A DNA stretch of 64,000 nt from Phycisphaerae bacterium (lineage in GTDB: Bacteria > Planctomycetota > Phycisphaerae > UBA1845). The stretch spans positions 271,116 to 335,115 of the forward strand of contig JAGFJJ010000069.1 in assembly GCA_024102815.1 (NCBI GenBank), written 5' to 3'. The position numbers and the translations under genes are program-made. Shown here piece after piece: positions 11,159 through 53,654 of this stretch (positions are counted from its first letter, which is position 1; the number at the start of each line of letters is the position of its first letter). The notes under the pieces are model-generated. The model ran no database searches. It saw only the letters and a list, made by a program, of their open reading frames with translations, and was not told where the DNA came from.

Positions 11159-12574
11159 ATGACCACAGGTACCGCCGTCGCCGATGCTGATTCCCTCTCC
11201 GTGCCAACGGCGGTGGAAGCACGGTCCACGCTCGTAACCGGCTCCGTTCGCCGGAAGCTCTTTGTCCTCGCCATGCCCGTTCTGGCCGAGCAGTTGCTCA
11301 ACACGGCGGTGGGGACATTCGACATTTTTCTCGCCGGCCGGCTCAGCGCCGCCGCGACCTCCGCCGTGGGACTGGCCGCTTACGTTGCGTGGCTTGTTTC
11401 CATGCTCGCCGCCATGATCGGGATCGGCACGACGGCCCTCGTTTCCCGTCACGAAGGCGCGGGCGACCGGCACGAGGCGAACCATGTCGCCAACCAGTCT
11501 CTGACGCTTGCCGTCGCGCTCGCCGTCTTGATAGCCGCACTCATCTACGGCATCGCCCCCGCCATTGCAACGTACTGCCGCATGACCGGCGAGTCCTTCA
11601 CGATCACCGTCGACTACCTGCGCATCGGTGCCCTCGGCCTTGCCTGCACCACGGTCACGCTGGTCGCCTGCGCCGCCCTTCGTGGCATCGGGAACATGCG
11701 CACCCCCATGTTCATTTTCGCGCTGATCAATCTGCTCAACATGAGCGTTTCCTGGGCATTGGTCTATGGACCGGGGCCGATCCCATCTCTCGGTGTGCGG
11801 GGGATCGTCACGGGTACTGTCGTGGCACATGCAGTGGGGCTCGCTCTCACGCTGGTCTTGCTTGCACGGGGGCGCGTCGGGCTGCGGCTCGTTCCGCGGG
11901 AGACGGTTCCTACCTGGGAGCGGACGCGCCGCATTCTGCATGTTGGGGTACCGGCCGGCGCCGACGGTGCAATCATGTGGTCCGGCCACTTCTGCTACCT
12001 GGCGATTCTCTCACGACTCGCGGATCCCCCCCTCGGCACGGCCTATTTTGCAGCACACATGATCGCCGTTCGCACAGAATCCCTTGTCTATCTGCCGGCC
12101 GTGGCCTGGGCGGCCGCTACCGCGACCATGATCGGACAGGCTCTCGGAGCGGGAAACCCGATCCGCGCCAAGCAAGTGGGCCATGAAGGCGTTCGGCAGT
12201 GTGGAATCCTGGCGGTGATCGTCTCCGCGGTTTTGTTCATCGGTGCAAATACCGTCTACGCCGTGATGAGTTCTGACCCGCTCGTGAGGGAGGCCGGCAC
12301 TGCGCCATTCCGGGTGCTCTTTGTCCTTACGCCGGCACTGGTCGTATCGATCGTCTATGTCGGCGGACTACGCGGCGCGGGCGACACGCGCACACCCATG
12401 CTGATCACCATTGTGGGCATTACCTTGCGGCTTGCTGTGGGCTACCTGGGCGGCATCGTCCTGCAGATGGGCCTTCTCGGAGCCTGGATGGGCATGTTCA
12501 CGGATATGATCTGGCGGGCCATTGCATCCAGTGTGCGCTATTTCCGTGGCAAATGGCTGCAGACTCGCGTGTGA
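11159..12574 (+). CDS. MATE family efflux transporter
   Basis: 12-TM pattern, LAMPVLAEQLLNTAVGTFDIFLAGRLS N-terminal MATE signature. Start moved to ATG 11159 (MTTGTAV); the ORF is open from 10898 but that part overlaps the divergent gene. Confidence 0.85.
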   Translation: MTTGTAVADADSLSVPTAVEARSTLVTGSVRRKLFVLAMPVLAEQLLNTAVGTFDIFLAGRLSAAATSAVGLAAYVAWLVSMLAAMIGIGTTALVSRHEGAGDRHEANHVANQSLTLAVALAVLIAALIYGIAPAIATYCRMTGESFTITVDYLRIGALGLACTTVTLVACAALRGIGNMRTPMFIFALINLLNMSVSWALVYGPGPIPSLGVRGIVTGTVVAHAVGLALTLVLLARGRVGLRLVPRETVPTWERTRRILHVGVPAGADGAIMWSGHFCYLAILSRLADPPLGTAYFAAHMIAVRTESLVYLPAVAWAAATATMIGQALGAGNPIRAKQVGHEGVRQCGILAVIVSAVLFIGANTVYAVMSSDPLVREAGTAPFRVLFVLTPALVVSIVYVGGLRGAGDTRTPMLITIVGITLRLAVGYLGGIVLQMGLLGAWMGMFTDMIWRAIASSVRYFRGKWLQTRV

Positions 12575-12652
12575 CGTCGAATTTCGGTGGGATTTGCGCA
12601 GGTAAGAAATCGGTAAGCGGAAGCTGGGATGCTCGCGTCGGGTTGGCACCGG

Positions 12653-13039
12653 TCAGAAGAAATTCAGTTGCAGCTTGGCCGCCTCGGACATGCGCTCGGG
12701 CGTCCACGGGGGATCCCAGACCACCTCTACCTTGGCGTCAGTTACGCCGTCCACCGTGCGGATCTTCTGCTCCACCTCGGGCGGCAGACTGCCGGCCACG
12801 GGACAGGCGGGCGAGGTCAGCGTCATCTTGACCTCGACTTCGCCATTCGGTCCGGCGTCGATATCGTAGATCAGCCCCAGATCGTAGATATTGACAGGTA
12901 TCTCGGGGTCAAAGCAGGTGCGAAGCACTTCGACAACCGCCGATTCGATCGCTTGCGCCTTGATTTGGTCCACCGGAGAACCCGAAACCTCCGCATCGGA
13001 ACCGCCTTCCTTACGCTTTTCAATTCTATCGTCCGTCAC
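12653..13039 (-). CDS. sufT: DUF59 / SufT-type Fe-S cluster assembly protein
   Basis: CFDPEIPVNIYDLGLIYD...LTSPACPV core of the DUF59 (YitW/SufT) family. The GTG start overlaps the upstream stop (GTGA at 13036-13039). Confidence 0.85.
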   Translation of the reverse strand: MTDDRIEKRKEGGSDAEVSGSPVDQIKAQAIESAVVEVLRTCFDPEIPVNIYDLGLIYDIDAGPNGEVEVKMTLTSPACPVAGSLPPEVEQKIRTVDGVTDAKVEVVWDPPWTPERMSEAAKLQLNFF

Positions 13040-35045: not shown

Positions 35046-35225
35046 CAAGTTGGGTTCGATCGGCGAGCATGCGCGCCGAGTGCATCTCTCGGCAGCCGGC
35101 CGGTCATTCCGATACCTATTCAGCCCCGAGTCTTGTCCCTGGCACGGAATGCCAGGGAATAGTGAGTAATTCAAAGAGGCCCAATCGGATAAGACTTGGC
35201 CATTCGCTGCCACACGGAGAGTATC

Positions 35226-37577
35226 ATGATTTCGTCCGCAACATCCCCCCTTACCATCGCCCGTGGCCAGAAAGGAATTCTGCCCGGCGTCCTGCTCGCC
35301 CTGCTGGCGGCGGCGCCGGTTCTGGCCCAGACCACCACCATGAAGCCCGAGGTCGAGGATCGCGTCAAACGTGCGTCGATCATGATCTTTATGGCCGTTT
35401 CCGAGCGCGAAAAAGGTGACACGCCTCTGGGCTCCGGATCGGGGTTCTTCATCAATGGAACCGGCTTGGCGATAACCAACAACCACGTCGTAGACCCGAC
35501 GCACATGAAAAGCCCGGCCGAGAAACAGAACTTCCATTATCGCGCCGGTCGATTGACCTGGACGGCGATCGTCAACTCCGGCGTGGACGGTGAGGAGAAG
35601 AAGTACGACGCCATGGTCATCTATCAGAATGAGACGGCGGACCAGGCCCTTCTCCAAGTCTATGCCGATGACCAGGGCACGCTGCTGAAGACACCGAATT
35701 ATCTGCGGCTGCTCCCGGAATCCCGTCTGGAGGAGCGCATGCCCGTGTGGGCCTTTGGGTTTCCGGGCGGCCCATCGCAGCGGATCGAGAACAACCTCAA
35801 TCCGAAAGTCTCTATTACCGCCGGAAATGTGCTCCAGTACCCCCGCACGCCCGGCGGACGGATCCGCATGATCTACACGGATGTGATCGCCCGCCCGGGC
35901 AACAGCGGCGGGGCGATGGTCAATGCAGATGGTTATGTCCTTGGCGCGGTCACGCTCATGAAGGCGCCCGAGGGCCGGGAGGATACCGGCGGGGCGAAGT
36001 ACTCGTCTCTGTCACCCGCATCGATTTCGAAAGAGCTCTTGCACAACGCCTTCGTGCTCGGGAAGGTGCCCGCGCACACGGACGTCACGCCGTTCATGAG
36101 CGCCCTGCCCCGCGTCCGCGGGCGGCTTAACGTACCGGAGTACGAGCGCCTCAACGACAAGGATGTGCTCTACTTCAATGATGGTGACCGGATTCACGGG
36201 GCCATCGCAAGCTCCACCATTACCTGGCCGACTTCAGTCGGAACACTGGAGGTCCCGGTCAGTGCCGTGGCCTACATCATCAATAACGATGAAGGATCGC
36301 ATCTGTTTCTGGAGGGCGGCAACTACCTCGCAGCGACGTCGAATGTCAAAGCCACGATCAAGTTCCAGCCCCAAGGCGGTGAACCGACCGATGTGGACGT
36401 GAAGAACGTCGCCGTCATCGGGTTCAAGACAGAGGACCGCGAAATCTCTCCGGTGGAGGGTGACGTCTTCGTGCTCGACTCCGACGCAGGTCATCTTGTC
36501 GTCAAGGGTGTATCCGGCTCGGCCTCCTTTGCCGGACGAATCGGTGCCATTCAGGTCAAGCTCCCCAATCTCATCCGCGCCTCGCGTCAACCCGACGGGT
36601 CCACGGTTGTGTTGATGCAGGACGGCCGGCGGATGACCGGACGGTTCGACGCCGGGAAGTTCGAGGCGACCATCGCCGCGACGGGAACGCCGATCGCCAT
36701 CGACCTCTCCGGCATCAACTGGATGACCGTTCGCGAAGAGCACCAGCAGGCGGGTATTACGGCGGGTTCGACGCTGCTTGACGTTCTCACTGGCGCGGAT
36801 GACCAGGTCCTTCAGACGGCTCGGGACCTCCAGGGCGGCGATCTTGCGAAAGCACGGGAGACGGTGAATCAGCTTACCGACTCCAGCACCATGAAGAAAT
36901 TCACCGACGCGAAGAAAGACCAGGTACGCTTACTCGAAGCGGTGCTGCTGCTTCGTGAAGGCAGATACGATGAGTCCACCCGTGCCTTTCGGCGCGTGGC
37001 CCGAGCCGATGACAACAACCTGGCTGCTTTTGCGTCCGGCTACGGCATGGTCCTGAAGGAAAACGAGCGGACCGGTTACGAATTCGACGGCAAACCCTTC
37101 AGCGATCGGCAGGCTTTCCAGCGAGCCGGGCTAGAGACGGCACGGCGCGTCGTCGCGGAAGCCCGCAGCGCAATCAAAGACGCCCGCGGGCGCGAAGGCA
37201 AGAATCGTGGCGAATACGCCCGCACAATCGGCGATGTGAAGAAGTACGAGGATGTCCTGACCGGAGCTGCCGTGTTCATCGGAACCGATGCCGAAGATGT
37301 ACTGGTTCGCTTGTGGAAAGTCGCCATCGACACCGGATACAGAGAGCTGGATCGCTTGGAGAAGGTCGAGCAGGAACAGCAAGAGGACGCGCGGGGCGGC
37401 AGTCGAAAGGGACGCGGATCAAACCTCCTTGCCCAGCGTGAAATGGACGAGATCAAGCGCCTCCGTGAAGACACTGAAGAGACCCTGCGGACCTATTACT
37501 TCAAGCGCTTCGACTACGGATTTCGAATTGAGGATCCGGACATCCAGGCACTCAAGGAGAAGAAGGCCGACGTGTAG
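35226..37577 (+). CDS. Secreted trypsin-like (S1) serine protease with long C-terminal extension
   Basis: ATG 35226 (GGAGA upstream) gives a signal peptide ending ...AAAPVLAQ. Triad contexts ITNNHVV (His), DQALLQV (Asp), RPGNSGGAMV (Ser). About 550 aa of beta-rich then helical extension. Confidence 0.8.
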   Translation: MISSATSPLTIARGQKGILPGVLLALLAAAPVLAQTTTMKPEVEDRVKRASIMIFMAVSEREKGDTPLGSGSGFFINGTGLAITNNHVVDPTHMKSPAEKQNFHYRAGRLTWTAIVNSGVDGEEKKYDAMVIYQNETADQALLQVYADDQGTLLKTPNYLRLLPESRLEERMPVWAFGFPGGPSQRIENNLNPKVSITAGNVLQYPRTPGGRIRMIYTDVIARPGNSGGAMVNADGYVLGAVTLMKAPEGREDTGGAKYSSLSPASISKELLHNAFVLGKVPAHTDVTPFMSALPRVRGRLNVPEYERLNDKDVLYFNDGDRIHGAIASSTITWPTSVGTLEVPVSAVAYIINNDEGSHLFLEGGNYLAATSNVKATIKFQPQGGEPTDVDVKNVAVIGFKTEDREISPVEGDVFVLDSDAGHLVVKGVSGSASFAGRIGAIQVKLPNLIRASRQPDGSTVVLMQDGRRMTGRFDAGKFEATIAATGTPIAIDLSGINWMTVREEHQQAGITAGSTLLDVLTGADDQVLQTARDLQGGDLAKARETVNQLTDSSTMKKFTDAKKDQVRLLEAVLLLREGRYDESTRAFRRVARADDNNLAAFASGYGMVLKENERTGYEFDGKPFSDRQAFQRAGLETARRVVAEARSAIKDARGREGKNRGEYARTIGDVKKYEDVLTGAAVFIGTDAEDVLVRLWKVAIDTGYRELDRLEKVEQEQQEDARGGSRKGRGSNLLAQREMDEIKRLREDTEETLRTYYFKRFDYGFRIEDPDIQALKEKKADV

Positions 37578-38805: not shown

Positions 38806-40134
38806 ATGGAGGGGACCCCCACCACCACGCGCGGCCTCGCTGCCGCCAACCACCGTGCCCCGATAGTGGCGAAGAAGGCCCTCTTGCGTGCCAACGTTTC
38901 GATGGCATGCCTGGTCGCATGTGCATTGAGTGCCGCATTGGCGGCGTCGAACGCGCGAGCCGTGGATGGCCGTGCCGTCGCCGAACAGAAGGGCAGCATG
39001 CTTATCTTCCCGTCCATTGAGATCCGATGGGATGATAGCGGAGCACTTCTCCAAGATACGTTCATCGAACTCACCAATGATCACACGGAGGATGTTTTTG
39101 TCCAGATGTATTTCGTGAATGGAGATCCTCCGCTGGAGGCAGATTACAATCCTGGGGGAATGCTGCGCGAACGGGCTCATGCGGGTTGGAACAACATCGG
39201 CGTGCAGATTCTCCTGACAGGAAATGAGCCCACATACTGGTCGGCGCACACCGGACTGCCGATCGGTGTGGCACCGTGGGAACTGCTGGATCCGGGTGAC
39301 CCACCCGGCAGACCAAACCTCTATTATGAGAACGAGCGGACGGTTCGCGGATTCCTGGTCGCATGGGCGGTCGACGCCCAGGGGCGCGAAATCCGATGGA
39401 ACCATCTCTCGGGGACCGCGGTAGCCATCGACTACGAACAGATCGCCGCATGGGAATATAAACCCTATGCCTTCCAGTCTCGTGGCAGCTCGAACGGAAT
39501 GCAGCCCACGAGCTGCGAGGTCCTGAGTGCGGAGAGCGGACAGTGCCTTGACGCCCGCATTGTTCCTGGGCGTCTGGATCTGGACGGATTTGAGTACGAT
39601 TCGTGCCCCAGTGCACTTATGTTCGAATTCATCGCGGCAGGTGCCGGTGTCCCCGGCCGGCCCGACGCAACCGCAGTTGTTCCCGTGGAGACGATGCTCA
39701 CGCTGATGCCCTGTGCGGTTGACCTCCGCCAGGAGACGGACGGGCCCGTAACGACGAAAGCCAACTTCGACATCTGGAACGCCAATGAGGTGCGCTTCTC
39801 CGGAACGGAGCGTTGTGTGACCTGCTGGGATTCGACCCCGCTTGATGTGTACACCTATCTCGGCGCGGCCAATCACTTCCTGGTTTACAACCTCCAGACG
39901 GACCGGGGGAAGGCCCGCGTCCGGGGACTGGCCAGCCAGCGTTGTGACGCGCCGGGCGTGGTCAGCGAGGCCTCCGCATTGCTCGGCGTGTCCCGCAAGG
40001 CGCTCTACTTCAGCGAGAGAACGGCCTATGCAGGCTCACCTCTGTCCATACAGGGGCTACTCGGCGGCCGGATTCAATACGACGTCATCCAGCCGACCAG
40101 TGAGCGGCTACCCAAACGGGAGGGTCAACCGTAA
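38806..40134 (+). CDS. Orphan secreted protein, no family recognised
   Basis: GGAGAGGGAG precedes ATG 38806. Signal-like KKALLRANVSMACLVACALSAALAASNARA. Beta-rich sequence with 7 Cys. It is followed after 24 nt by the next gene. Confidence 0.7.
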   Translation: MEGTPTTTRGLAAANHRAPIVAKKALLRANVSMACLVACALSAALAASNARAVDGRAVAEQKGSMLIFPSIEIRWDDSGALLQDTFIELTNDHTEDVFVQMYFVNGDPPLEADYNPGGMLRERAHAGWNNIGVQILLTGNEPTYWSAHTGLPIGVAPWELLDPGDPPGRPNLYYENERTVRGFLVAWAVDAQGREIRWNHLSGTAVAIDYEQIAAWEYKPYAFQSRGSSNGMQPTSCEVLSAESGQCLDARIVPGRLDLDGFEYDSCPSALMFEFIAAGAGVPGRPDATAVVPVETMLTLMPCAVDLRQETDGPVTTKANFDIWNANEVRFSGTERCVTCWDSTPLDVYTYLGAANHFLVYNLQTDRGKARVRGLASQRCDAPGVVSEASALLGVSRKALYFSERTAYAGSPLSIQGLLGGRIQYDVIQPTSERLPKREGQP

Positions 40135-40158
40135 GCGAAGACCCTCGTTGAGAACCAG

Positions 40159-42012
40159 TTGGAGTGCTATGTCGGAAAGCAAAACATCGTGAACGCAACT
40201 CGCTCCATTCTCCGACGCGCGACACTCTTTCTGGCGCTGGCTGTGATGGCCGCGCCGGCGCTTGCGCAGACTTCGATCCTCACGCTGGGCCCGGGAAGGG
40301 CGTATCAGCGCGCCGACCTGTTTAACCTCACGTTGGCCGGGGAGAGCATGAGCACCGCGCGGCAAGCGCTGGTCAACGACGGATTCGTCATCGACACCAG
40401 TGAGTCGTTCACCGTCCCAAGTCTTTCCGGGTACGACATTGTCGCGCTCGGGCTGTTTGCGCCTGGCAGCGGCTTGGAAGTTCCCGAACAGCTCGCCATC
40501 GAGAGCTTCGTTCGCGCCGGCGGGGCGCTCGTCTACTTCGGAGACAACGACGGGTTCGCCGCGGCCAACGAAAGCGTCGCGGGCCTGTTTGGCGTTGTGT
40601 TCTCCAACGATCCGATCTCAAATGCCGCACGAAACGTTCTCGCACCCAACCACCCCCTCCTGTCCGGACCAGGTGGGGCCGTTACGGAATATGACGGCAG
40701 CGGAAACCTCACCAACTATTTCGGCGGGATACTGAACCTGGGACCCTATGCTCAAGCGGTACTTCGTACGCCGAATCGAACGGTTGTGGCGGTGATCGAG
40801 CGGAACGCCCTTCAGCCTGGAAGCGGTCCCGTCGTGTTCCTTTCCGACATCAACGGCTTTCTCGATGCCGGCATTGGCACAATTCACCTCGGCAACAATC
40901 TCGCATTGCTGCGCAACATCTTCGCGTTTGCCAGGGGCTCCTGTACAAGTGATGCCCAGTGCGACGATGGCGCTTTCTGCAACGGCGCGGAGCGCTGCAA
41001 TGCCGGAACGTGCGTAGCGGGAGTACCACCGTGTGTCGCCAGCGGAAAGCCCTGCAACGAACTGGTCGACGCCTGTGCGGCATGCGTGGCCGATACTGAA
41101 TGCGATGACGGCGTGTTCTGCAATGGCATGGAAGTGTGCGGGACGAGCGGTGTGTGCGAGTCGGGTCCGCCCCCATGCGGAGACTCGTGCGAGTCCTGCA
41201 ACGAATCCAACGAGACCTGCACCTGGTGTATTTTCGATCTGGATAGCGACGGCGTTATCGCAACTGAGGACGCCAATCTGCTCAGCGAGTGCATGGGCGC
41301 CTGCTACGCATCAGGCAGTCCCTGTGCAGCCGCCAACTTCGACAACGACCCGGCCAACTGCGTGGGCTCGGCGGATTTCGCCGCGTTCAGCGCCTGCTAC
41401 GGACTGGTTTGCGCGGAATGCCCCGGGTGCTCCGGGCCGCCTTCTCAGGCTCGTCCCATTGCTAGTGCGCCGAAGTTCGCCGATCGGCTCCGCCTCGCGG
41501 TCACTACAACCACGAATCCATCTCCAAGCGACGCCGTCGATCGACTGCCACCCTCACGTATGGACTGGCTCCGCGGGCAGACCTTCTACGTCGAGGTCTG
41601 GGTCTCGGCGGTCGCCGCGCCATCCGCCGGTGTCGCCGCCGCCTATCTGGATGTGCAGTGGAATGAAAATCAACTCGATCTGCTGAGCAGCCGGGTCAGC
41701 GATTCACTGGGTGCGCTGGCACAGCCGGGAAGACCTGGTGCGGGCGCTCTTCGCGGCGTGGGCGGATGCACGACGCCGGGACACCTGAGCACGGGAAGGG
41801 TCGGCCAGTGGTTGCGTGTCGCGACGTTGCGGATGCGCGCATCGTCCGGCGGCACCGGAGAAGTGACGGTCGGACTTCCCGGCGGTCCGCTCGGCGTAAG
41901 TCTCTTGGGTGAGTACCGCGATGTTCTACCGGGAGAGACGAGCACGATCGCCGCACCCGTAAGGACCGGTGATCCTCGAAACGATGTAAGCGTCGGGGCA
42001 ATCGAACACTGA
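40159..42012 (+). CDS. Secreted multidomain protein: alpha/beta N-domain, 2 Cys-rich modules, dockerin-like pair, cohesin-like C-domain
   Basis: Signal [19 protein letters not shown] (TTG 40159, or GTG 40189). The N-domain SGYDIVALG...[14 protein letters not shown] is reminiscent of ThuA/DUF4159-type folds (tentative). CDDG[AV]FCNG modules. [17 protein letters not shown] and [18 protein letters not shown] segments. Confidence 0.8.
40941..41229 (+). repeat. Two ~42-aa Cys-rich modules (C-x4-C-DDG-x-FCNG-x-E-x-C...)
   Basis: [27 protein letters not shown]... and [28 protein letters not shown].... The same module occurs in the next gene. Confidence 0.8.
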
Positions 42013-42076: not shown

Positions 42077-44377
42077 ATGCAACACGTTCAACGTTACAAT
42101 CTCGCCTGGCTCTTTCTTGCATTGGTCACAATCGCACTCGTAAGTGCCGACCATGCCGCAGCACAGCCGGTGGTAAGCGCCCGCCTCCTGGCCGTGAAAT
42201 CCGCAGGCCTACTGGACGCCGTAACCGCATTGCCTCCGTCACAGACCGCCTATGAGGAGGGAGAGAGCTTCTTCCTGGAACTCTGGGTAACCACGAGCCA
42301 TCCGCAAGGACTGGCTTCCGTTTACGTGGATGTCGGTCTGTCTGCGCCGCTGATTACACTTCAGGATCCCAACGCCGGCCAACTTTTCACGTTCTTCACG
42401 AGTGGATTGTCTTCGCCGACGGGAATTGATGATATCGGCGGCTCCCATCTGGGCACCGCTTTCTGTGCCGACCAACTGGGCCTGACACCGCGCTGGGCTC
42501 GCCTGGCGATTGTTTCGGCACAGGCCACGACCAATGGGATGTGCACGCTGCAACTCGGCCCTTCGATGTCCCCTGCATTGGGGATCAGTATCTGCGGCAT
42601 GTTCGGAGACGTTCCGGTCGCGTCCGTGGATTACGGCCCGCCACTGAACATCGAGGTCATCGCTGTTCAGCGGTGCACGGCTAACGCCGATTGTGACGAC
42701 GGCGTCTTCTGTAATGGTTCGGAAGTCTGTGCCGAAGGTGTCTGCGCGCCCGGAGCGTTTCCGTGCGAGACGGGTCAGGGATGCGATGAAGCCAGCGAGA
42801 CGTGCGGTTCGTGCTTTGCCGACGGCGAATGCGACGATGGCGTGTTCTGTAATGGCGAGGAGACCTGTGACGTCTCTACAGGCGAGTGTGTTCCTGGGGC
42901 GTTCCCCTGCGGCGAGCTCGAAGGTTGCTTCGAGTCCATCGGAACATGCGGCGCCTGCACGGCCGACGCCCAGTGCCAGGATGGCCTATTCTGCAACGGC
43001 TCGGACTCGTGCGATCTGATCACCGGTATCTGTCTTCACAGTGGTTTCCCGTGTGGCGGAGCCGAAGGGTGTCTGGAGGACGTCGACGCGTGCGGACCGT
43101 GCAATGTCGATGATCAGTGCGACGATGGCCTGTTCTGTACGGGCGTGGAAACCTGCGACGTCGGTTCAGGCATTTGCATGGTTGGCGAGCTGCCATGCGG
43201 CGGCGAAGGCGTCTGTATCGAGTCAACCGAAAGCTGCGGAGACTGCGCAAGCGACGCCGATTGTGATGATGGTCTGTTCTGCAACGGCTCGGAGACCTGT
43301 GACCTCGCCAGCGGCACCTGCGTGACAGGAATCGCGCCTTGCCCCGGAGATTGTTACGAAGAAATCGACTCCTGCACGCCTCCGCCCCCCACGGGCGGTG
43401 GGGGTGGTGGAGGAAGTGGCGTTCCGGCTGACAACGACGGCGACGGCGTGCCCAATACCGAAGATAATTGCTTCGCAGTGGCGAACCCCGACCAGGCCGA
43501 TCTGGACAACGACGGCATCGGCGATGCCTGTGAAACGGATACAGACGGCGACTCGATTCCCAACGCACTGGACAATTGCCTGACGGTCCCGAATCCGAAT
43601 CAGCTTGATTCAGACGGAGACGGCTTCGGAAATGCGTGCGACGGATGCCCCAACGATCCCTCCAAGGTGATCCCCGGAGCTGACGGCTGCGCCAATGATG
43701 GCGGTGAGCCTCCGGGACCGCCCCCGAACAACGGGGATGACATCGACGGCGATGGCTGGGACAACGGCGAGGACAATTGTCCCGCGCTGAGCAACCCCGA
43801 CCAGATGGATGCCGACGGCGACGGTCTGGGCAACGCCTGCGACAATTGTCCGGGCATCGAAAACCTGACCCAGGAAGATGATGACGACGATGGTGTCGGA
43901 AATGCTTGCGATCATTGCCCCAATACGACCGATAACGTGGACGTCAATGCGTTCGGGTGTAGCGCGGAGCAGGACCCCGACGGCGATGGCATGCCCGATA
44001 ACAACGACGATACGCCGGGCAATCCGGTACCGACCGATAATTGTCCCGGTTTCTTCAACCCTGACCAGAATGATCGCGACAACGATGGCGTGGGAGACGC
44101 CTGTGACAACTGCCCCGACATCGCAAACACCAACCAGGACGACTTTGACGGCGATCGCTGGGGCGATGTCTGCGATAATTGTCTGATAACTCCCAATCCC
44201 GACCAGGAAGATGCCGACGCCGACGGTGTCGGCGACCAATGTGAGGACCTCGATCCGGGAACTTATGATCCACCTCGGCAACTCTGTGGCGCGTGCGGAT
44301 TAGGCACTCCCATGGCATTCTGGTTCTGCGCTTTGTTTTTAGCGGCCGTTCCGTGTAAGATGCGTCGTAGTCGGTGA
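42077..44377 (+). CDS. Exported scaffold-like protein: cohesin-like N-domain, 5 Cys-rich modules, Gly linker, TSP type-3 repeats, C-terminal sorting-signal-like tail
   Basis: Signal LAWLFLALVTIALVSADHAAAQ. Domain order is read directly from the translation. The tail is CGACGLGTPMAFWFCALFLAAVPCKMRRSR. Confidence 0.85.
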   Translation: MQHVQRYNLAWLFLALVTIALVSADHAAAQPVVSARLLAVKSAGLLDAVTALPPSQTAYEEGESFFLELWVTTSHPQGLASVYVDVGLSAPLITLQDPNAGQLFTFFTSGLSSPTGIDDIGGSHLGTAFCADQLGLTPRWARLAIVSAQATTNGMCTLQLGPSMSPALGISICGMFGDVPVASVDYGPPLNIEVIAVQRCTANADCDDGVFCNGSEVCAEGVCAPGAFPCETGQGCDEASETCGSCFADGECDDGVFCNGEETCDVSTGECVPGAFPCGELEGCFESIGTCGACTADAQCQDGLFCNGSDSCDLITGICLHSGFPCGGAEGCLEDVDACGPCNVDDQCDDGLFCTGVETCDVGSGICMVGELPCGGEGVCIESTESCGDCASDADCDDGLFCNGSETCDLASGTCVTGIAPCPGDCYEEIDSCTPPPPTGGGGGGGSGVPADNDGDGVPNTEDNCFAVANPDQADLDNDGIGDACETDTDGDSIPNALDNCLTVPNPNQLDSDGDGFGNACDGCPNDPSKVIPGADGCANDGGEPPGPPPNNGDDIDGDGWDNGEDNCPALSNPDQMDADGDGLGNACDNCPGIENLTQEDDDDDGVGNACDHCPNTTDNVDVNAFGCSAEQDPDGDGMPDNNDDTPGNPVPTDNCPGFFNPDQNDRDNDGVGDACDNCPDIANTNQDDFDGDRWGDVCDNCLITPNPDQEDADADGVGDQCEDLDPGTYDPPRQLCGACGLGTPMAFWFCALFLAAVPCKMRRSR
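42674..43375 (+). repeat. Five tandem ~42-aa Cys-rich modules
   Basis: [19 protein letters not shown]..., [19 protein letters not shown]..., CTADAQCQDGLFCNGSDSC..., CNVDDQCDDGLFCTGVETC..., CASDADCDDGLFCNGSETC.... Confidence 0.85.
43427..44249 (+). repeat. Thrombospondin type-3-like Ca2+-binding repeats
   Basis: Reiterated D-x-D-x-DG-x-x-D-x-x-DNC-x-x-x-x-NP-x-Q-x-D (for example DNDGDGVPNTEDNCFAVANPDQADLDNDGIGDACE; DRDNDGVGDACDNCPDIANTNQDD). Confidence 0.85.
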
Positions 44378-44632: not shown

Positions 44633-46000
44633 ATGCGGAAAAGAAGCGTAATAATCGGGGCGGGGATCTGGCTGATTATCGGAGGACTCTCCGGTACAGC
44701 GGCATTCGGACAGTGTGCATGGGATCCGGCTTTTGGAAACCCGGGCGTGAGCGGCGGGACTTTCCCAGCAGTCAATGCCCTAGCGGTCTACGACGACGGC
44801 GGCGGACCGGCCCTCTACATCGGCGGGTCGTTCAGCCAGGTGGGCGGCGTTCTCGCAAACAACATTGCCAAATGGAACGGCTCCTCCTGGAGCGCCCTGT
44901 CCTTCGGCGTCGACGCGCCTGTGTTTGCCATGACGGTGTACAACGACGGGACCGGCCCGGCCCTGTACGTCGGCGGGATGTTTACAACCGCCGGTCTCGT
45001 CACCGCGAATCGGGTCGCCAAGTGGAATGGCACGAGCTTCTCCGCCGTGGGTGGCGGAACCAGCAGCGTGGTTTATGCTCTGACCACATTCAATGACGGA
45101 ACGGGAACGGCCCTGTACGTGGGTGGCTCCTTTGCGACGGTCGGTCCCGGCAGCGGCTTGCTGGTCAACAATATCGCCAAATGGAACGGGACCTCCTGGA
45201 GCAAGCTTGGGACGCAGGGTGCCGGTTCCGTGGTCAACAGCCTGACGACATGGAATTCGGGGACCGGAAACGCGCTGTATGTCGCTGGGCTCTTTACCAG
45301 CGTCTCGGGAATCCCGGCCAACCGCGTCGCCATGTGGAATGGAATCGGATGGTCCGGACTGACGAGTGGTCTGAACAACGACGCAAACGTCGTCCTGGGA
45401 TCCAACGGCGGCCCGATCGGTACGTACCTTTACACCGGTGGCCTGTTTTCCACTGCAGGCGGGCCGTTGAGCCCTGCATCCAACATTGCCCGCTGGACCG
45501 GGACGTTCTGGACCAGCGTCGGCGCCGGGCTCAACGGCAAGGTGCTCGATTTGGCGATCCTGGATGAAGGATCCGGGCCGGTACTCATGGCTGGCGGAGA
45601 GTTTGATGCCGCCAACGGAACTGCGGTCAATCAAGTCGCGCGGTGGAACGGCACAGGCTGGTCGTCGGTGGGCGCGGGAACGAACGACACCGTTCGCGCC
45701 CTACTGTCCACGGATGAGACCAACGCCATCGGCCGCGCGCTCTACGTCGGCGGTCAATTCACGCAGGCAAACAATACGACGGCCAACCGCATCGCCCGCT
45801 GGGTCTGCTCGGTGACAATAGACGACTGCACGGGCGACGGCCGATTCGACCTCGACGACTTCGCGCGATGGGACGATTGTGACAACGGTCCCAACGGCGG
45901 ATTCGGGTCGTCGAACTGTGACTGCCTCGACCGGGACGAGGACGGCGACCTCGACCTGAGGGACTATGCCACGTTCCAGCGGATCTTTGCCGGGCCATGA
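44633..46000 (+). CDS. Secreted 7-blade beta-propeller-like repeat protein with dockerin-like C-terminus
   Basis: Signal VIIGAGIWLIIGGLSGTAAFGQ. Seven ~50-aa repeats. C-terminal DCTGDGRFDLDDFARW and DRDEDGDLDLRDYATFQRIF. Confidence 0.85.
   Translation: MRKRSVIIGAGIWLIIGGLSGTAAFGQCAWDPAFGNPGVSGGTFPAVNALAVYDDGGGPALYIGGSFSQVGGVLANNIAKWNGSSWSALSFGVDAPVFAMTVYNDGTGPALYVGGMFTTAGLVTANRVAKWNGTSFSAVGGGTSSVVYALTTFNDGTGTALYVGGSFATVGPGSGLLVNNIAKWNGTSWSKLGTQGAGSVVNSLTTWNSGTGNALYVAGLFTSVSGIPANRVAMWNGIGWSGLTSGLNNDANVVLGSNGGPIGTYLYTGGLFSTAGGPLSPASNIARWTGTFWTSVGAGLNGKVLDLAILDEGSGPVLMAGGEFDAANGTAVNQVARWNGTGWSSVGAGTNDTVRALLSTDETNAIGRALYVGGQFTQANNTTANRIARWVCSVTIDDCTGDGRFDLDDFARWDDCDNGPNGGFGSSNCDCLDRDEDGDLDLRDYATFQRIFAGP
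44761..45810 (+). repeat. Seven ~50-aa repeats (V-x-A-L-x-x-[FY]-NDGTG-x-ALYVGG-x-F-...-AN-x-IAKWNG-x-x-WS)
   Basis: For example VFAMTVYNDGTGPALYVGGMFTTAGLVTANRVAKWNGTSFSAVGGG and VVYALTTFNDGTGTALYVGGSFATVG...VNNIAKWNGTSWSKLG. Confidence 0.8.
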
Positions 46001-51800: not shown

Positions 51801-53654
51801 CACGTACTCGATAGCTGCGAACTCGCCGGGCGCGACTGCAACAACAACGGCGTGCTCGACCCGTGCGACCTTGCCCGTGGGACAAGCCAGGACTGCCAGT
51901 CCAATGGCATCCCCGACGAGTGCGAACTCGCAGGCGATGACTGCAACGGCGACGGTGTTCCCGACACCTGCCAGATCACCACGCGAGACTGTAATCGAAA
52001 TGACAGGCTCGATTCATGCGACATCGCCGCCGGCACGAGTGCGGATTGTCAGAGCGACGGCCGTCCCGACGAGTGCCAGCTTCTTGGCAACGACTGCAAT
52101 CAGAATGGCGAGCCCGACGAATGTGATCTGATCGCAGGGACTTCCGAGGACGCCAACAACAACGGGCTCCTCGATGAGTGCGAACCGCAGCCATGCGATC
52201 TGGTCAACGTTGCCCGAATCCTGCCCGTTGGCGGCGGGCTCGGCGATACCTTTGGATCGGCCGTTGATATCGACGGCGAGTGGATGCTTGTTGGTGCACA
52301 GAGCTTCGACACGTCATTCGACCGCGCCGGCGCGTCGTGGTTCTACCGTATTCAAGGCAACGACATCCTGCCGGGCACGCGGGTCCTGGCGAATGATGGT
52401 GACCGCGACGACCGCTTTGGTTGGTCCGTGTCGCTCGACGGCAATATCGCCGCGATTTCCGCCATCTACGACGACGATGTCACATCCAACTCGGGATCGG
52501 TCTACGTCTATCGACTGATCGGCCAGACATGGACGTTCGAGGCCAAGCTGAGTGCTTCGGATCCCGGTTCCGGAGATGCCTTCGGTCACAGCGTTTCGGT
52601 TGGCGGCGACCGGATTCTTATCGGCGCCCGCTACGACGATGACCGCGGAAGCAACAGCGGTTCCGCTTACGTCTTCCGATGGACGGGTTCATTGTGGGTA
52701 CAGGAAGCCAAGCTGCTCGCCGCCGACGGCCAGCCCTCCGATTTCTTCGGTTCCGCCGTCGCGCTGTCGGGGACTGTGGCGGTCGTCGGTGCCTTTGGCG
52801 AGGACGAGCGCGGCGGGACCGCGGGCGCGGCCTACGTTTATGAAAGGACCGGGACGCTTTGGACTCAGAAGGCCAAGTTGCTGGCGCTGGATGGCAAGAC
52901 CGATGACTGGTTCGGCGCGGCCGTCGCCACCGACGGAGACCGAATACTCGTCGGTGCCCGCTACACCGATGAACAGGGCTCCGGGTCCGGTTCGGCCTAT
53001 TTCTTCCAGAAAGTAGCCGGAATCTGGCAACCCGCGGGCAAGATCCTGCCCGCTGATGGCGCCGCCGGCGACGGATTCGGCGTTGCCGTGGATCTTGACG
53101 GGTCCTTCGCCATCGTTGGTGCGGACGGTGGCGATGATGGCGCCACGAATGCCGGAGCAGCCTACATCTTTGCCTGGGATGGTGTCAGTTGGGCTCAGCA
53201 GGCGAAGATTCTTCCGTCCGTTCGAAACTCGGGCGCGCAATTTGGCATAGCCGTCGGCCTCTCCGGTTCGAATGGAGTCGCAGGCGCTCAATATGCGAAT
53301 AACTTGTCCGGCGTCAGCACCGGCGCCGCGAGTTTGTTTACCGGAATTGACGACTGCAATCGAAACCTCGGGCTCGATGCTTGTGATCTTGTTAACGGGC
53401 TTAGCTCCGACAGTGATGGAAACGGCCGTCCCGATGAGTGCGACTTGACCGTGCCGGGGGACTACGACCTGGACGGGGATGTTGACCTTGCGGATTACGC
53501 TGGATTCCTTGGCTGCGCTGCCGGTCCAGCGTCGGTACTCAGCGCTTCGAGCGGAAACACGCTCCGGTGCCTTGGGGCCTTCGATTCTGACGGCGACGAG
53601 GACATTGATCTGTTCGATTTCGCTCGATTCCAGGCGATTCTGCAAACCCCCTGA
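48888..53654 (+). CDS. Giant (1588 aa) secreted protein: BNR/sialidase-like propeller, 37 Cys-flanked acidic-loop repeats, 7 FG-GAP repeats, dockerin-like tail
   Basis: ATG 48888 gives MFWFRRLLLGMVAITSVTAG. Asp-boxes SHDSGRHW, STDGGLSW, SVDGGMTF, STNGGLNW, SLDGGITW. The repeat arrays are listed separately. The tail is GDYDLDGDVDLADYAGFL...FDSDGDEDIDLFDFARFQAIL. Confidence 0.9.
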   Translation: MFWFRRLLLGMVAITSVTAGEHDRLAGRYLPAHEGPSTDPLRTTDTEGASSPSRGPLASTWIRGRYVSVQVNVDANGANIVGDAANEPSLAIDPTNPLRMVIGWRQFDSVTSDFRQAGWAYSHDSGRHWTFPGVIEPGVRRSDPVLFSDAGGSFFYLSLGRSGELFTTQLFRSTDGGLSWSRIGPTDFGGDKPWAAVDPTGGIGGGNIYVSWGSIGCCDNRIFMRSVDGGMTFDTPVTIPQQPIWGTISAGPDGTVYVAGKRPLFDNEFIIARSSTIKDPANPLEFDFGAEVDMGGRFLANPGTGPNPDGLYGQVWVATDHSDRPTRGNVYMLCSVTPFDPFNFDPLDVHFVASTNGGLNWSAPVRINDDPVGNFAWQWFGTMSVAPNGRIDVIWNDTRNDITQTYSELYYAYSLDGGITWSENEPVSPPFAHAVGYPNQEKLGDYYHMISDNAGAHVAYAATFNGEQDVYYLRILARDCNENGIPDEEDVANGTSPDCNGNDVPDECELTGNDCNGNQVPDVCDVDAGTSSDCQDDGIPDECQLADQDCNDSGVPDTCELPGNDCDGNGVLDSCELSGRDCNANGRIDACDTAGGFSLDCQGDQIPDECQLADNDCDGSGIPDACELATRDCNGNGVLDSCDVSAGASLDCQGNGQPDECELQQNDCNFNNIPDDCELVGNDCNLTGIPDECELSGNDCNATGIPDECELIGNDCNHNMQPDSCDIASGTSADCQLNGVPDECELAGNDCDGSGVPDECELSGRDCNGNLRLDSCDIAAGSSPDCQLNGTPDECELIGNDCNATGVPDECELAGNDCDGSGVPDECELPGNDCNGNQRLDSCDLASGSSRDCQSNAVPDECELAGNDCNLTGIPDECELAGNDCNANGRPDTCDIVSGASKDCQVNGIPDECELAGNDCDGNSIPDQCELSGRDCDGNHVLDSCELSGRDCDSNAKLDVCELSGRDCDGNHVLDSCELAGRDCNNNGVLDPCDLARGTSQDCQSNGIPDECELAGDDCNGDGVPDTCQITTRDCNRNDRLDSCDIAAGTSADCQSDGRPDECQLLGNDCNQNGEPDECDLIAGTSEDANNNGLLDECEPQPCDLVNVARILPVGGGLGDTFGSAVDIDGEWMLVGAQSFDTSFDRAGASWFYRIQGNDILPGTRVLANDGDRDDRFGWSVSLDGNIAAISAIYDDDVTSNSGSVYVYRLIGQTWTFEAKLSASDPGSGDAFGHSVSVGGDRILIGARYDDDRGSNSGSAYVFRWTGSLWVQEAKLLAADGQPSDFFGSAVALSGTVAVVGAFGEDERGGTAGAAYVYERTGTLWTQKAKLLALDGKTDDWFGAAVATDGDRILVGARYTDEQGSGSGSAYFFQKVAGIWQPAGKILPADGAAGDGFGVAVDLDGSFAIVGADGGDDGATNAGAAYIFAWDGVSWAQQAKILPSVRNSGAQFGIAVGLSGSNGVAGAQYANNLSGVSTGAASLFTGIDDCNRNLGLDACDLVNGLSSDSDGNGRPDECDLTVPGDYDLDGDVDLADYAGFLGCAAGPASVLSASSGNTLRCLGAFDSDGDEDIDLFDFARFQAILQTP
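50322..52184 (+). repeat. 37 tandem 16-aa/19-aa coding repeats (DC-N-x-N-G-x-PDEC-E-L-x-G-x)
   Basis: Units were counted directly from the translation. Short units: DCDGSGVPDECELSGR, DCNATGIPDECELIGN. Long units: DCNGNLRLDSCDIAAGSSP, DCNHNMQPDSCDIASGTSA. Confidence 0.9.
52240..53340 (+). repeat. Seven FG-GAP-type repeats
   Basis: GDTFGSAVDIDGEWMLVGA, DDRFGWSVSLDGNIAAISA...SGSVYVY, GDAFGHSVSVGGDRILIGA...SGSAYVF, SDFFGSAVALSGTVAVVGA...AGAAYVY, DDWFGAAVATDGDRILVGA...SGSAYFF, GDGFGVAVDLDGSFAIVGA...AGAAYIF, GAQFGIAVGLSGSNGVAGA. Confidence 0.85.

Follow-up and report, generated by a model that had tools for sequence, protein, structure and literature searches.

The question raised by this locus is whether the C-terminal tail of a secreted protein from a planctomycete is a sorting signal or simply a membrane anchor, in which latter case the finding would be routine. 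The stretch analyzed here, called the window throughout, comprises 64,000 nucleotides of a Phycisphaerae bacterium (contig JAGFJJ010000069.1, positions 271,116 to 335,115 of the forward strand) and contains at 42077..44377 on the plus strand the coding sequence of a protein of 766 amino acids (aa), which ends with a short Cys/Gly motif, a hydrophobic helix and a basic cluster. Which proteins a bacterium presents on its surface is determined by C-terminal sorting signals, and to our knowledge the discovery of each such signal has until now brought a new processing enzyme with it. For Planctomycetota there is so far no description of the MYXO-CTERM signal or of the enzyme that processes it. The first-pass annotation, made from the sequence alone, had considered both a variant sorting signal and a plain tail anchor. 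Our analysis favors the former, because the motif is conserved, is carried by unrelated secreted proteins, is always found at the C-terminus and keeps a fixed spacing between its cysteine and the arginine cluster. On balance we consider it probable that the tail is a Planctomycetota (Phycisphaerae) variant of the Cys-type, MYXO-CTERM-like sorting signals. Cut by an intramembrane enzyme encoded elsewhere, it would anchor a scaffold of cohesin-like and thrombospondin type 3 (TSP3) parts at the cell surface.

As read from the list of open reading frames (ORFs) and the sequence, the 766-aa ORF at 42077..44377 (+) terminates with ...DPPRQLCGACGLGTPMAFWFCALFLAAVPCKMRRSR directly before the stop codon, exactly as the first-pass annotation had given it; the start set there for the tail, position 44283, falls inside the codon of L736. 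In the codon register the signature motif C737-G-A-C740-G-L-G743 occupies 44285..44305 (+), where C740-G741 corresponds to the invariant Cys-Gly pair of the tail family described below and C737-G738 to the frequent second Cys. The motif leads into a hydrophobic, predicted membrane-spanning segment of 19 aa (L742..C760; 44300..44356, +), which was located by a hydropathy scan, has a Kyte-Doolittle mean of about 1.9–2.1 and includes P745, C751, P759 and C760. The end of the protein (44357..44377, +) is made up of the basic cluster K761-M-R-R-S-R766 at 44357..44374, predicted to be cytoplasmic by the positive-inside rule, and the stop codon at 44375..44377. The tripartite layout that had been noticed before, CGACGLG followed by L742-C760 and KMRRSR, is real, and all three parts have now been placed in the codon register. 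C740 and the first basic residue are 21 aa apart. When every ORF of 150 aa or more in the window was scanned, no second one with a C-terminal hydrophobic stretch and a basic end was found, in agreement with the earlier statement that the other proteins of the gene island lack such a tail.

The tail is conserved in full-length orthologues of the 766-aa protein. One of them (P0001, locus L004) is 65 % identical and has the tail CGACGTGISMAFWFCAL...KMRRIR, and another (P0002, L003/L008) is 39 % identical and has the tail CGTCGQGLPLGLLLCGLCW...RGRAR. Across three orthologues, at 39–65 % identity, the residues C737, G738, C740, G741 and G743 of the signature motif are invariant, as are C751, L753, R763, R764 and R766. 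Paralogous TSP3 proteins from other metagenome-assembled genomes (MAGs) of Phycisphaerae carry tails of the same kind (L009 with CGACGVGAPTGLM... and the end PCGACGVGAPTGLMLTSLCWMGLRMSRRQRWS; L037 with CGLCGLGTPASLA... and the end PCGLCGLGTPASLAMCLFGWAGLRFHLRRKLR). In addition, among the best 120 homologues of the whole protein about ten further TSP3 proteins end with C-G-x(1-5)-C-G or a single C-G, followed by a helix and an Arg cluster.

To find further carriers, a profile made from ten tails was searched against 1.84 billion representative proteins at E ≤ 1e-3. This yielded 21 matches, 13 of which were not among the seeds, and in 11 of these 13 the match ends no more than 15 residues from the C-terminus. 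The carriers include proteins with a Big_1 domain (P0129), an InlB B-repeat (P0127), a subtilase with a P-domain (P0138) or FG-GAP_2 (P0069), as well as an InhA-like protein with MAM and TSP3 parts (P0013) and Dicty_CTDC proteins (P0137, P0015). At least six different architectures therefore bear the tail at the C-terminal position, which is the modularity known from Cys-type signals. Most of the members whose N-terminus is present start with what looks by eye like a signal peptide, and all members with a taxon name are assigned to Planctomycetota or Phycisphaerae. The resemblance between tails follows the source and not the protein family. In detail, P0069 (FG-GAP) and P0138 (subtilase), which are otherwise unrelated, have the subtype CGACGxxG[LI][VI]SW in common and come from one metagenome, with GC contents of 60.3 and 60.9 % and a tetranucleotide correlation r of 0.97, and are probably from one population. 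P0135 and P0137 have the same locus-tag prefix and hence belong to one MAG; their similarity reaches beyond the tail. A word-indexed search of 5.8 billion proteins with the ten-tail alignment, which is too short a query for that index, returned 57 candidates, none of them scored.

The members of the family share one layout, in which an optional C-G-x(1-5) precedes an invariant C-G, and about 17 hydrophobic residues and an Arg cluster follow. Alignments of 20–22 tails show no exception to this Cys and few to the Gly next to it. A second Cys or Cys-Gly lies 2–6 residues upstream of the invariant Cys in 17 of 22 tails, and 13 of 22 have a Pro within 20 residues past it. In 16 of 22 tails the first basic residue stands 19 residues past the invariant Cys; the corresponding range in six MYXO-CTERM-positive tails is 19–31. 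The subgroup to which the tail of the 766-aa protein belongs (aligned with P0001, P0002, L009 and L037) has features of its own. It retains the Cys inside the helix (C751, invariant in the three orthologues), often with a Trp 2–3 residues further on (LCW, FGW), and a Pro at the start of the helix; helix Cys, Trp and helix-start Pro do not occur in the other tails of the family.

As a family, the tails are clearly separated from their background. A local tail profile gave the members 28.8 bits or more, and among the 5379 ORFs of 926 kb no non-member exceeded 11 bits; the top non-member, with 11 bits, was a PEP-CTERM tail. The profile thus sets the family clearly apart from both the PEP-CTERM and the IPTL-CTERM tails that occur in these lineages. 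When a leave-out profile was built from the tails of other proteins, the tail of the 766-aa protein obtained 17.1 bits within its ORF (E 7e-4) and 24.9 bits in isolation, with a background maximum of 9.9 bits among the 5379 ORFs. The same profile scored L037 at 23.3, P0001 at 20.0, L009 at 17.2 and P0002 at 3.9 bits.

Among the known signals, the first-pass annotation had named MYXO-CTERM as the closest in spirit. By its published definition, this signal has a Cys that never varies and frequently another one nearby, though not adjacent (GCGC), a helix free of Pro and charge, and an Arg cluster; it is reported to be limited to Myxococcota and Bradymonadales, with 6–43 substrates per genome, and in M. 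xanthus these substrates include TSP3, Ig-like and protease proteins. Its enzymes, the myxosortases MrtX, MrtC and MrtP of Myxococcota and Bradymonadales, are of the CPBP/Rce1 type and are not encoded near the substrates. The experimental confirmation of the system came only in 2025, when MrtX was found to cleave TraA in a Cys-dependent manner (PMC11980579). According to the working model, Sec export is followed by lipidation of the Cys, by cleavage and by transport to the surface through the type II secretion system (PMC11980579).

The proposed kinship holds at the level of the family, as the Cys feature is shared and two members just reach the cut-offs of MYXO-CTERM models: a P0122-type tail scored 20.1 bits on TIGR03901.2 (cut-off 20), and the P0073 tail 16.2 bits on TIGR03382 ('GC_trans_RRR'; cut-off 15.85). 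Weaker MYXO-CTERM-related matches were obtained with P0023 and P0129. The family has the invariant Cys, often with a second one nearby, and an N-terminal Sec signal peptide was recognized by eye in the 766-aa protein and in most members with an N-terminus. The tail of the 766-aa protein itself stays below the cut-offs of the hidden Markov models (HMMs), its helix includes two prolines (P745, P759), and the named carriers of the family all belong to Phycisphaerae/Planctomycetota. The tail family agrees with MYXO-CTERM in the logic of its motif and departs from it in taxonomy, in HMM score and in the composition of the helix, and for these reasons it should not be filed as MYXO-CTERM proper.

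By analogy, however, the tail would most likely work like MYXO-CTERM, and on this ground we infer that the tail is cleaved, that its Cys is modified, to which family the enzyme belongs and where the 766-aa protein ends up. The precursor would be exported by the Sec route through its N-terminal signal peptide, and the C-terminal helix would hold it transiently in the cytoplasmic membrane, with K761-R766 in the cytoplasm and the C-G-x-C-G motif at the periplasmic face. C740 would be modified, probably lipidated as proposed for MYXO-CTERM, and a membrane-embedded endopeptidase encoded elsewhere would remove the helix together with the Arg cluster, the likeliest candidate being a myxosortase-like enzyme of the CPBP/Rce1 type. 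The mature protein would be carried to the cell surface, would be attached there by its new C-terminus and would display its TSP3/Cys-rich stalk and the distal cohesin-like module as an anchoring scaffold.

The residues that follow the invariant Cys in the family (Gly at +1, a small or aliphatic residue at +2, and Gly, Leu or Phe at +3) resemble a reversed lipobox L-[AS]-[GA]-C. Lgt has been proposed to lipidate MYXO-CTERM in an inverted topology (PMC11980579); to tie the reversed-lipobox likeness to this proposal would be pure speculation.

A number of observations weigh against the Cys-type signal as we read it. No NCBIfam or Pfam sorting-domain model matched the tail of the 766-aa protein even at E ≤ 10, and this negative result is real because the same scan did recognize the true MYXO-CTERM tails of homologous TSP3 proteins (TIGR03901, 22.8–26.3 bits; TIGR03382, 23.3 bits) and, with 24.4 bits, an IPTL-CTERM tail. 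The Pro and Cys residues in the helix of its subgroup are unlike MYXO-CTERM, and this subgroup is a divergent branch that is only moderately recognized by the profile of the other tails (P0002, 3.9 bits). Only three tails were found in 690 kb of Phycisphaerae loci, all of them on TSP3 proteins. Most of the remaining points concern the enzyme. As had been claimed before, the window contains no sorting protease: none of its polytopic or single-pass membrane ORFs that were scanned has a CPBP, exosortase, rhomboid or sortase domain. The polytopic ones are an MFS transporter, two PMT_2 glycosyltransferases, a GT4, a PIN-TRAM, a MatE, a TatC and a TPR protein, and the single-pass or unassigned ones include HDOD, SufB/D, GHL10, Trypsin_2 and HNH proteins. 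The surroundings of more than 12 tail-bearing genes were inspected on their contigs, and none of these genes has one for a PF02517 or similar sorting enzyme closer than 10 kb; about 0.9 Mb of related DNA contained no plausible CPBP protein (EExxxR-type motif with at least three hydrophobic segments). Finally, the myxosortase core model of Haft, NF040914, had no member outside Myxococcota/Bradymonadales in more than 14000 representative proteomes.

This restriction of NF040914 implies that a canonical myxosortase is not to be expected in cultured Planctomycetota. The RefSeq representative proteomes of that survey presumably exclude MAGs, and the uncultured lineages that carry the tail were probably not covered by it. 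Either the enzyme of the Phycisphaerae is a divergent CPBP protein, or it belongs to another family, or the lineages concerned were left unsampled by the survey. That the enzyme is not found near the tail genes is compatible with MYXO-CTERM, whose enzyme is encoded apart from its substrates.

What else could the tail be? If the helix were kept, the 766-aa protein would be a permanently anchored type I protein of the cytoplasmic membrane with a periplasmic ectodomain, and the C-G-x-C-G motif would have some other role at the membrane surface, for example in disulfide formation, metal binding or oligomerisation. Indeed, the hydrophobic stretch of 19 aa and the positive-inside cluster satisfy the needs of a stop-transfer sequence, C-G-A-C is formally a CxxC motif, and the extra Cys and Pro kept in the helix of this subgroup are not obviously needed by a disposable signal; the missing sorting enzyme in the window, in the neighbourhoods of the tail genes and in the related DNA examined would also be explained. 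Plain anchors, however, normally conserve hydrophobicity and not a sequence motif, whereas here an invariant Cys-Gly stands at a fixed distance of 19 residues from the Arg cluster, on unrelated exported proteins and at the C-terminus only. Moreover, every known tripartite tail with a conserved motif next to the helix is processed, and a stalk of 700 aa with cohesin and TSP3 parts would be more sensible on the cell surface than in the periplasm. We therefore regard a permanent anchor as rather unlikely, although it is the strongest competitor of our reading. That a low-complexity C-terminus only looks tripartite by chance is extremely improbable, as the motif residues are invariant across orthologues at 39–65 % identity, the independent matches among 1.84 billion proteins are significant and nearly all C-terminal, the family is cleanly separated from the ORF background and the leave-out profile still finds the tail. 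It has to be kept in mind, though, that the tail is short and that profile-profile comparison cannot separate it from any other tail made of helix and arginines: the tail family was aligned with MYXO-CTERM-positive tails at 30 % and with a PEP-CTERM control at 58 % probability, in both cases through the helix and Arg part only.

A real sorting signal could also be served by an enzyme outside the CPBP family, such as a paralogue of exosortase or rhombosortase or an enzyme specific to Planctomycetota, and the attachment chemistry may then differ from Cys lipidation. Such an enzyme would agree with the fact that NF040914-type myxosortases were not detected beyond Myxococcota/Bradymonadales, that the same lineages run other systems, namely PEP-CTERM (L007, L035, L043, L046) and IPTL-CTERM (L029, L049, P0087), and that the Cys abuts the helix at a fixed spacing, as opposed to the variable 19–31 residues of the MYXO-CTERM-positive tails. 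The PEP-CTERM and GlyGly-CTERM profiles, however, recognize only the helix and Arg part that all such tails share, and the absence of myxosortases in Haft's survey loses force if the uncultured tail-carrying lineages were, as is probable, not part of it; on the whole we think this alternative quite unlikely.

The Cys-type, MYXO-CTERM-like signal remains our preferred reading, and it might be taken one step further. Phycisphaerae may possess a Cys-based C-terminal sorting system of their own, consisting of C-G-x-C-G and a helix of fixed length, whose processing and attachment enzyme would be an undescribed one other than a canonical myxosortase and which would, among other tasks, fix cohesin scaffolds to the outer surface so that neighbouring dockerin-like proteins can assemble on them. 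This extension is possible but doubtful. If it were true, a diderm planctomycete would possess a surface assembly similar to a cellulosome, with a C-terminal lipid or another Cys-linked group as its anchor.

The architecture of the 766-aa protein, whose exact sequence is also present on two Logan metagenome contigs, the longer of them 68 kb, gives some idea of what would be anchored. It comprises, in addition to the tail, a signal peptide, a cohesin-like domain, Cys-rich repeats, a Pro/Gly linker and TSP3 repeats. The first 29 residues (42077..42163, +; judged by eye) read MQHVQRYNLAWLFLALVTIALVSADHAAA and are followed by QP; with a basic n-region, a hydrophobic h-region and an AAA-Q site they presumably form a Sec-type signal peptide. 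The next part, aa about 30–198 (42164..42670, +), is a beta-sandwich domain for which an AlphaFold2 model with a pLDDT (predicted local distance difference test) of 76.7 was obtained, and a Foldseek search of this model against the PDB gave almost only cohesin modules (5lxv_C with E 1.9e-5; 4ums, 4dh2 and 6kgf; TM 0.45–0.6). Six Cys-rich repeats of the type C-x2-D-x2-C-D-D-G-x-F-C-N-G-x-E-x-C, recognized in the translation, follow at aa about 199–426 (42671..43354, +); they are kept in the orthologue alignment, and related proteins match Pfam Dicty_CTDC or DUF4215. The calcium-binding TSP3 repeat region spans aa about 452–722 (43430..44242, +; Pfam TSP_3 3.1e-23, five stretches). The best NCBIfam match of the protein is a partial one to the TSP3 part of MtsC (2.4e-54, under the cut-off), which does not cover the tail; MtsC itself is a MYXO-CTERM protein. 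On the opposite strand of the TSP3 region, an ORF of 223 aa with seven hydrophobic segments (43610..44281, -) is a reverse reading of the Asp-codon-rich repeats and most likely no gene. A scan for terminators 3' of the 766-aa gene found nothing above expectation.

The gene is part of a cluster in which the order is that of the 442-aa, 617-aa, tail-bearing 766-aa and 455-aa proteins, and the same order is found in L004 and in L003/L008, the latter an uncultured Phycisphaeraceae MAG in which the 442-aa and 617-aa neighbours are 47–56 % identical. The two upstream genes (38806..42012, +) encode a beta-rich secreted protein of 442 aa and a protein of 617 aa that combines a DUF4350/ThuA-like N-terminus, Cys-rich repeats and a cohesin-like C-terminus. 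This second cohesin-like domain (41440..42009) is 28 % identical to the one at 42164..42670, and Pfam recognizes neither of them. The downstream gene (44633..46000, +), the position of which is conserved in L004 and L003, encodes a beta-propeller protein of 455 aa (Rax2-like, Pfam Rax2 5.6e-8) with a dockerin-like C-terminus. By eye, a dockerin-like segment of the form D-x-D-x-D-G-x-[IVL]-D-x-x-D-[FY] is present in duplicate at the C-terminus of this protein (45818..45997) and at that of an FG-GAP/BNR protein of 1603 aa (53418..53651); the former ends with ...DRDEDGDLDLRDYATFQRIFAGP and the latter with ...DSDGDEDIDLFDFARFQAILQTP. Pfam Dockerin_1 gave no significant match to these C-termini (E 1.8), and NCBIfam gave none. 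Taken together, the cohesin-like and dockerin-like segments suggest an assembly of the cohesin-dockerin type.

The 442-aa protein (38806..40134) belongs to a family of 324 proteins at E ≤ 1e-10, for which 44 loci were found in GTDB representative genomes. Several genomes have more than one copy, with up to six per MAG, and all loci with a taxon name are from Phycisphaerae/Planctomycetota, two records saying only 'bacterium'; this distribution, too, assigns the window to Phycisphaerae. The protein has no match in Pfam or NCBIfam. Its model is confidently all-beta (pLDDT 86.6) and has no convincing fold match in the PDB and no catalytic signature, only one sub-domain resembling TM1070 (1nc7). 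As a dedicated processing enzyme it was rejected on account of this all-beta fold, the lack of a catalytic signature and the fact that most of the 44 paralogous loci have no tail-bearing neighbour. A secreted Trypsin_2 protease of 793 aa, encoded upstream of the cluster (35196..37577), was likewise dismissed as a partner, since both Logan contigs contain it but the orthologous locus L003 does not.

If the preferred reading is true, the Cys-type class of sorting signals would extend to a phylum whose cell envelope is unusual and has been much debated, and the tail profile combined with phylogenetic profiling would provide a handle on the responsible enzyme. The tail protein would then be the anchoring component of an apparent surface assembly of the cohesin/dockerin type in uncultured planctomycetes.

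Among the known sorting systems, PEP-CTERM with its exosortase and IPTL-CTERM follow the same tripartite logic and are present in the same Phycisphaerae lineages, but their signatures, P-E-P and I-P-T-L-x-x-W-G, are without Cys, unlike those of the tail family. The 766-aa protein has neither a PEP motif nor a match to TIGR02595, on which its relatives reach 11.4 bits at most. Similarly, the GlyGly-CTERM model TIGR03501, which stands for the rhombosortase system, matched neither the 766-aa protein nor ten related tails. Tails of the PEP-CTERM type (..PEP.., helix, RRRR) were seen in the related loci L007 (19352..20089), L035 (4978..5823), L043 (16277..17002 and 11478..12926) and L046 (16015..16788 and 11486..12685), and tails of the IPTL-CTERM type (..IPT[VT]S.WGL..) in L029 (16523..18886) and L049 (16492..21159) and also in P0087. 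Since both types occur in related loci, Phycisphaerae have in the Cys-type tail a third kind, distinct from these two. In other phyla, homologous TSP3 proteins bear the Por_Secre_tail of the type IX secretion system (P0012, P0021, P0031, P0036), MYXO-CTERM (P0029, P0115, P0079, P0130) or IPTL-CTERM (P0087). As the sorting domain differs in this way by lineage, TSP3 proteins behave as 'choice-of-anchor' surface proteins across bacteria.

The four published Cys-type signals, MYXO-, JDVT-, Synerg- and CGP-CTERM, are all paired with endopeptidases of the CPBP/Rce1 type; among them, MrtX and TraA are the only pair for which experiments have demonstrated the cleavage. CGP-CTERM, which is processed by the archaeomyxosortase MrtA in Thermococcales, resembles our tail in that the Cys-Gly signature adjoins the membrane helix without a spacer, but it is an archaeal signal with one Cys before Gly-Pro and occurs on Thr/Ser-rich substrates; its model TIGR04288 had no match in the tested set of related tails, and the tail of the 766-aa protein has no NCBIfam match at all. 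JDVT-CTERM and Synerg-CTERM are likewise tripartite signals with a Cys, for which cleavage by CPBP-type enzymes is predicted. JDVT-CTERM differs in being a dedicated one-substrate system with a DP motif and with the enzyme encoded alongside, and Synerg-CTERM in having a Ser/Gly cluster that ends in a single Cys. The sole match of their models to a tail of the family was that of Synerg-CTERM to P0073, with 6.3 bits (cut-off 22.5).

MYXO-CTERM shares most with the tail family: a tripartite tail on Sec-exported proteins, an invariant Cys in a Gly-rich motif, an Arg-rich end, carriers that include TSP3-repeat, Ig-like and protease proteins, and the lack of an enzyme gene beside the substrates. It differs in its motif, which is GCGC and not C-G-x(1-5)-C-G, and in its geometry, as the Cys of the family adjoins the helix and precedes the first Arg by a nearly constant 19 residues (19–31 in the MYXO-CTERM-positive tails examined). 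With respect to the anchored protein, a close parallel is ScaE of Ruminococcus flavefaciens, a cohesin scaffoldin that is fixed at the surface of a Gram-positive cell by a C-terminal LPXTG signal and sortase and is thereby attached to peptidoglycan. Like ScaE, the 766-aa protein would be a cohesin-bearing anchoring protein with a C-terminal sorting signal; unlike ScaE, it would serve a diderm cell and use a signal of the Cys type.

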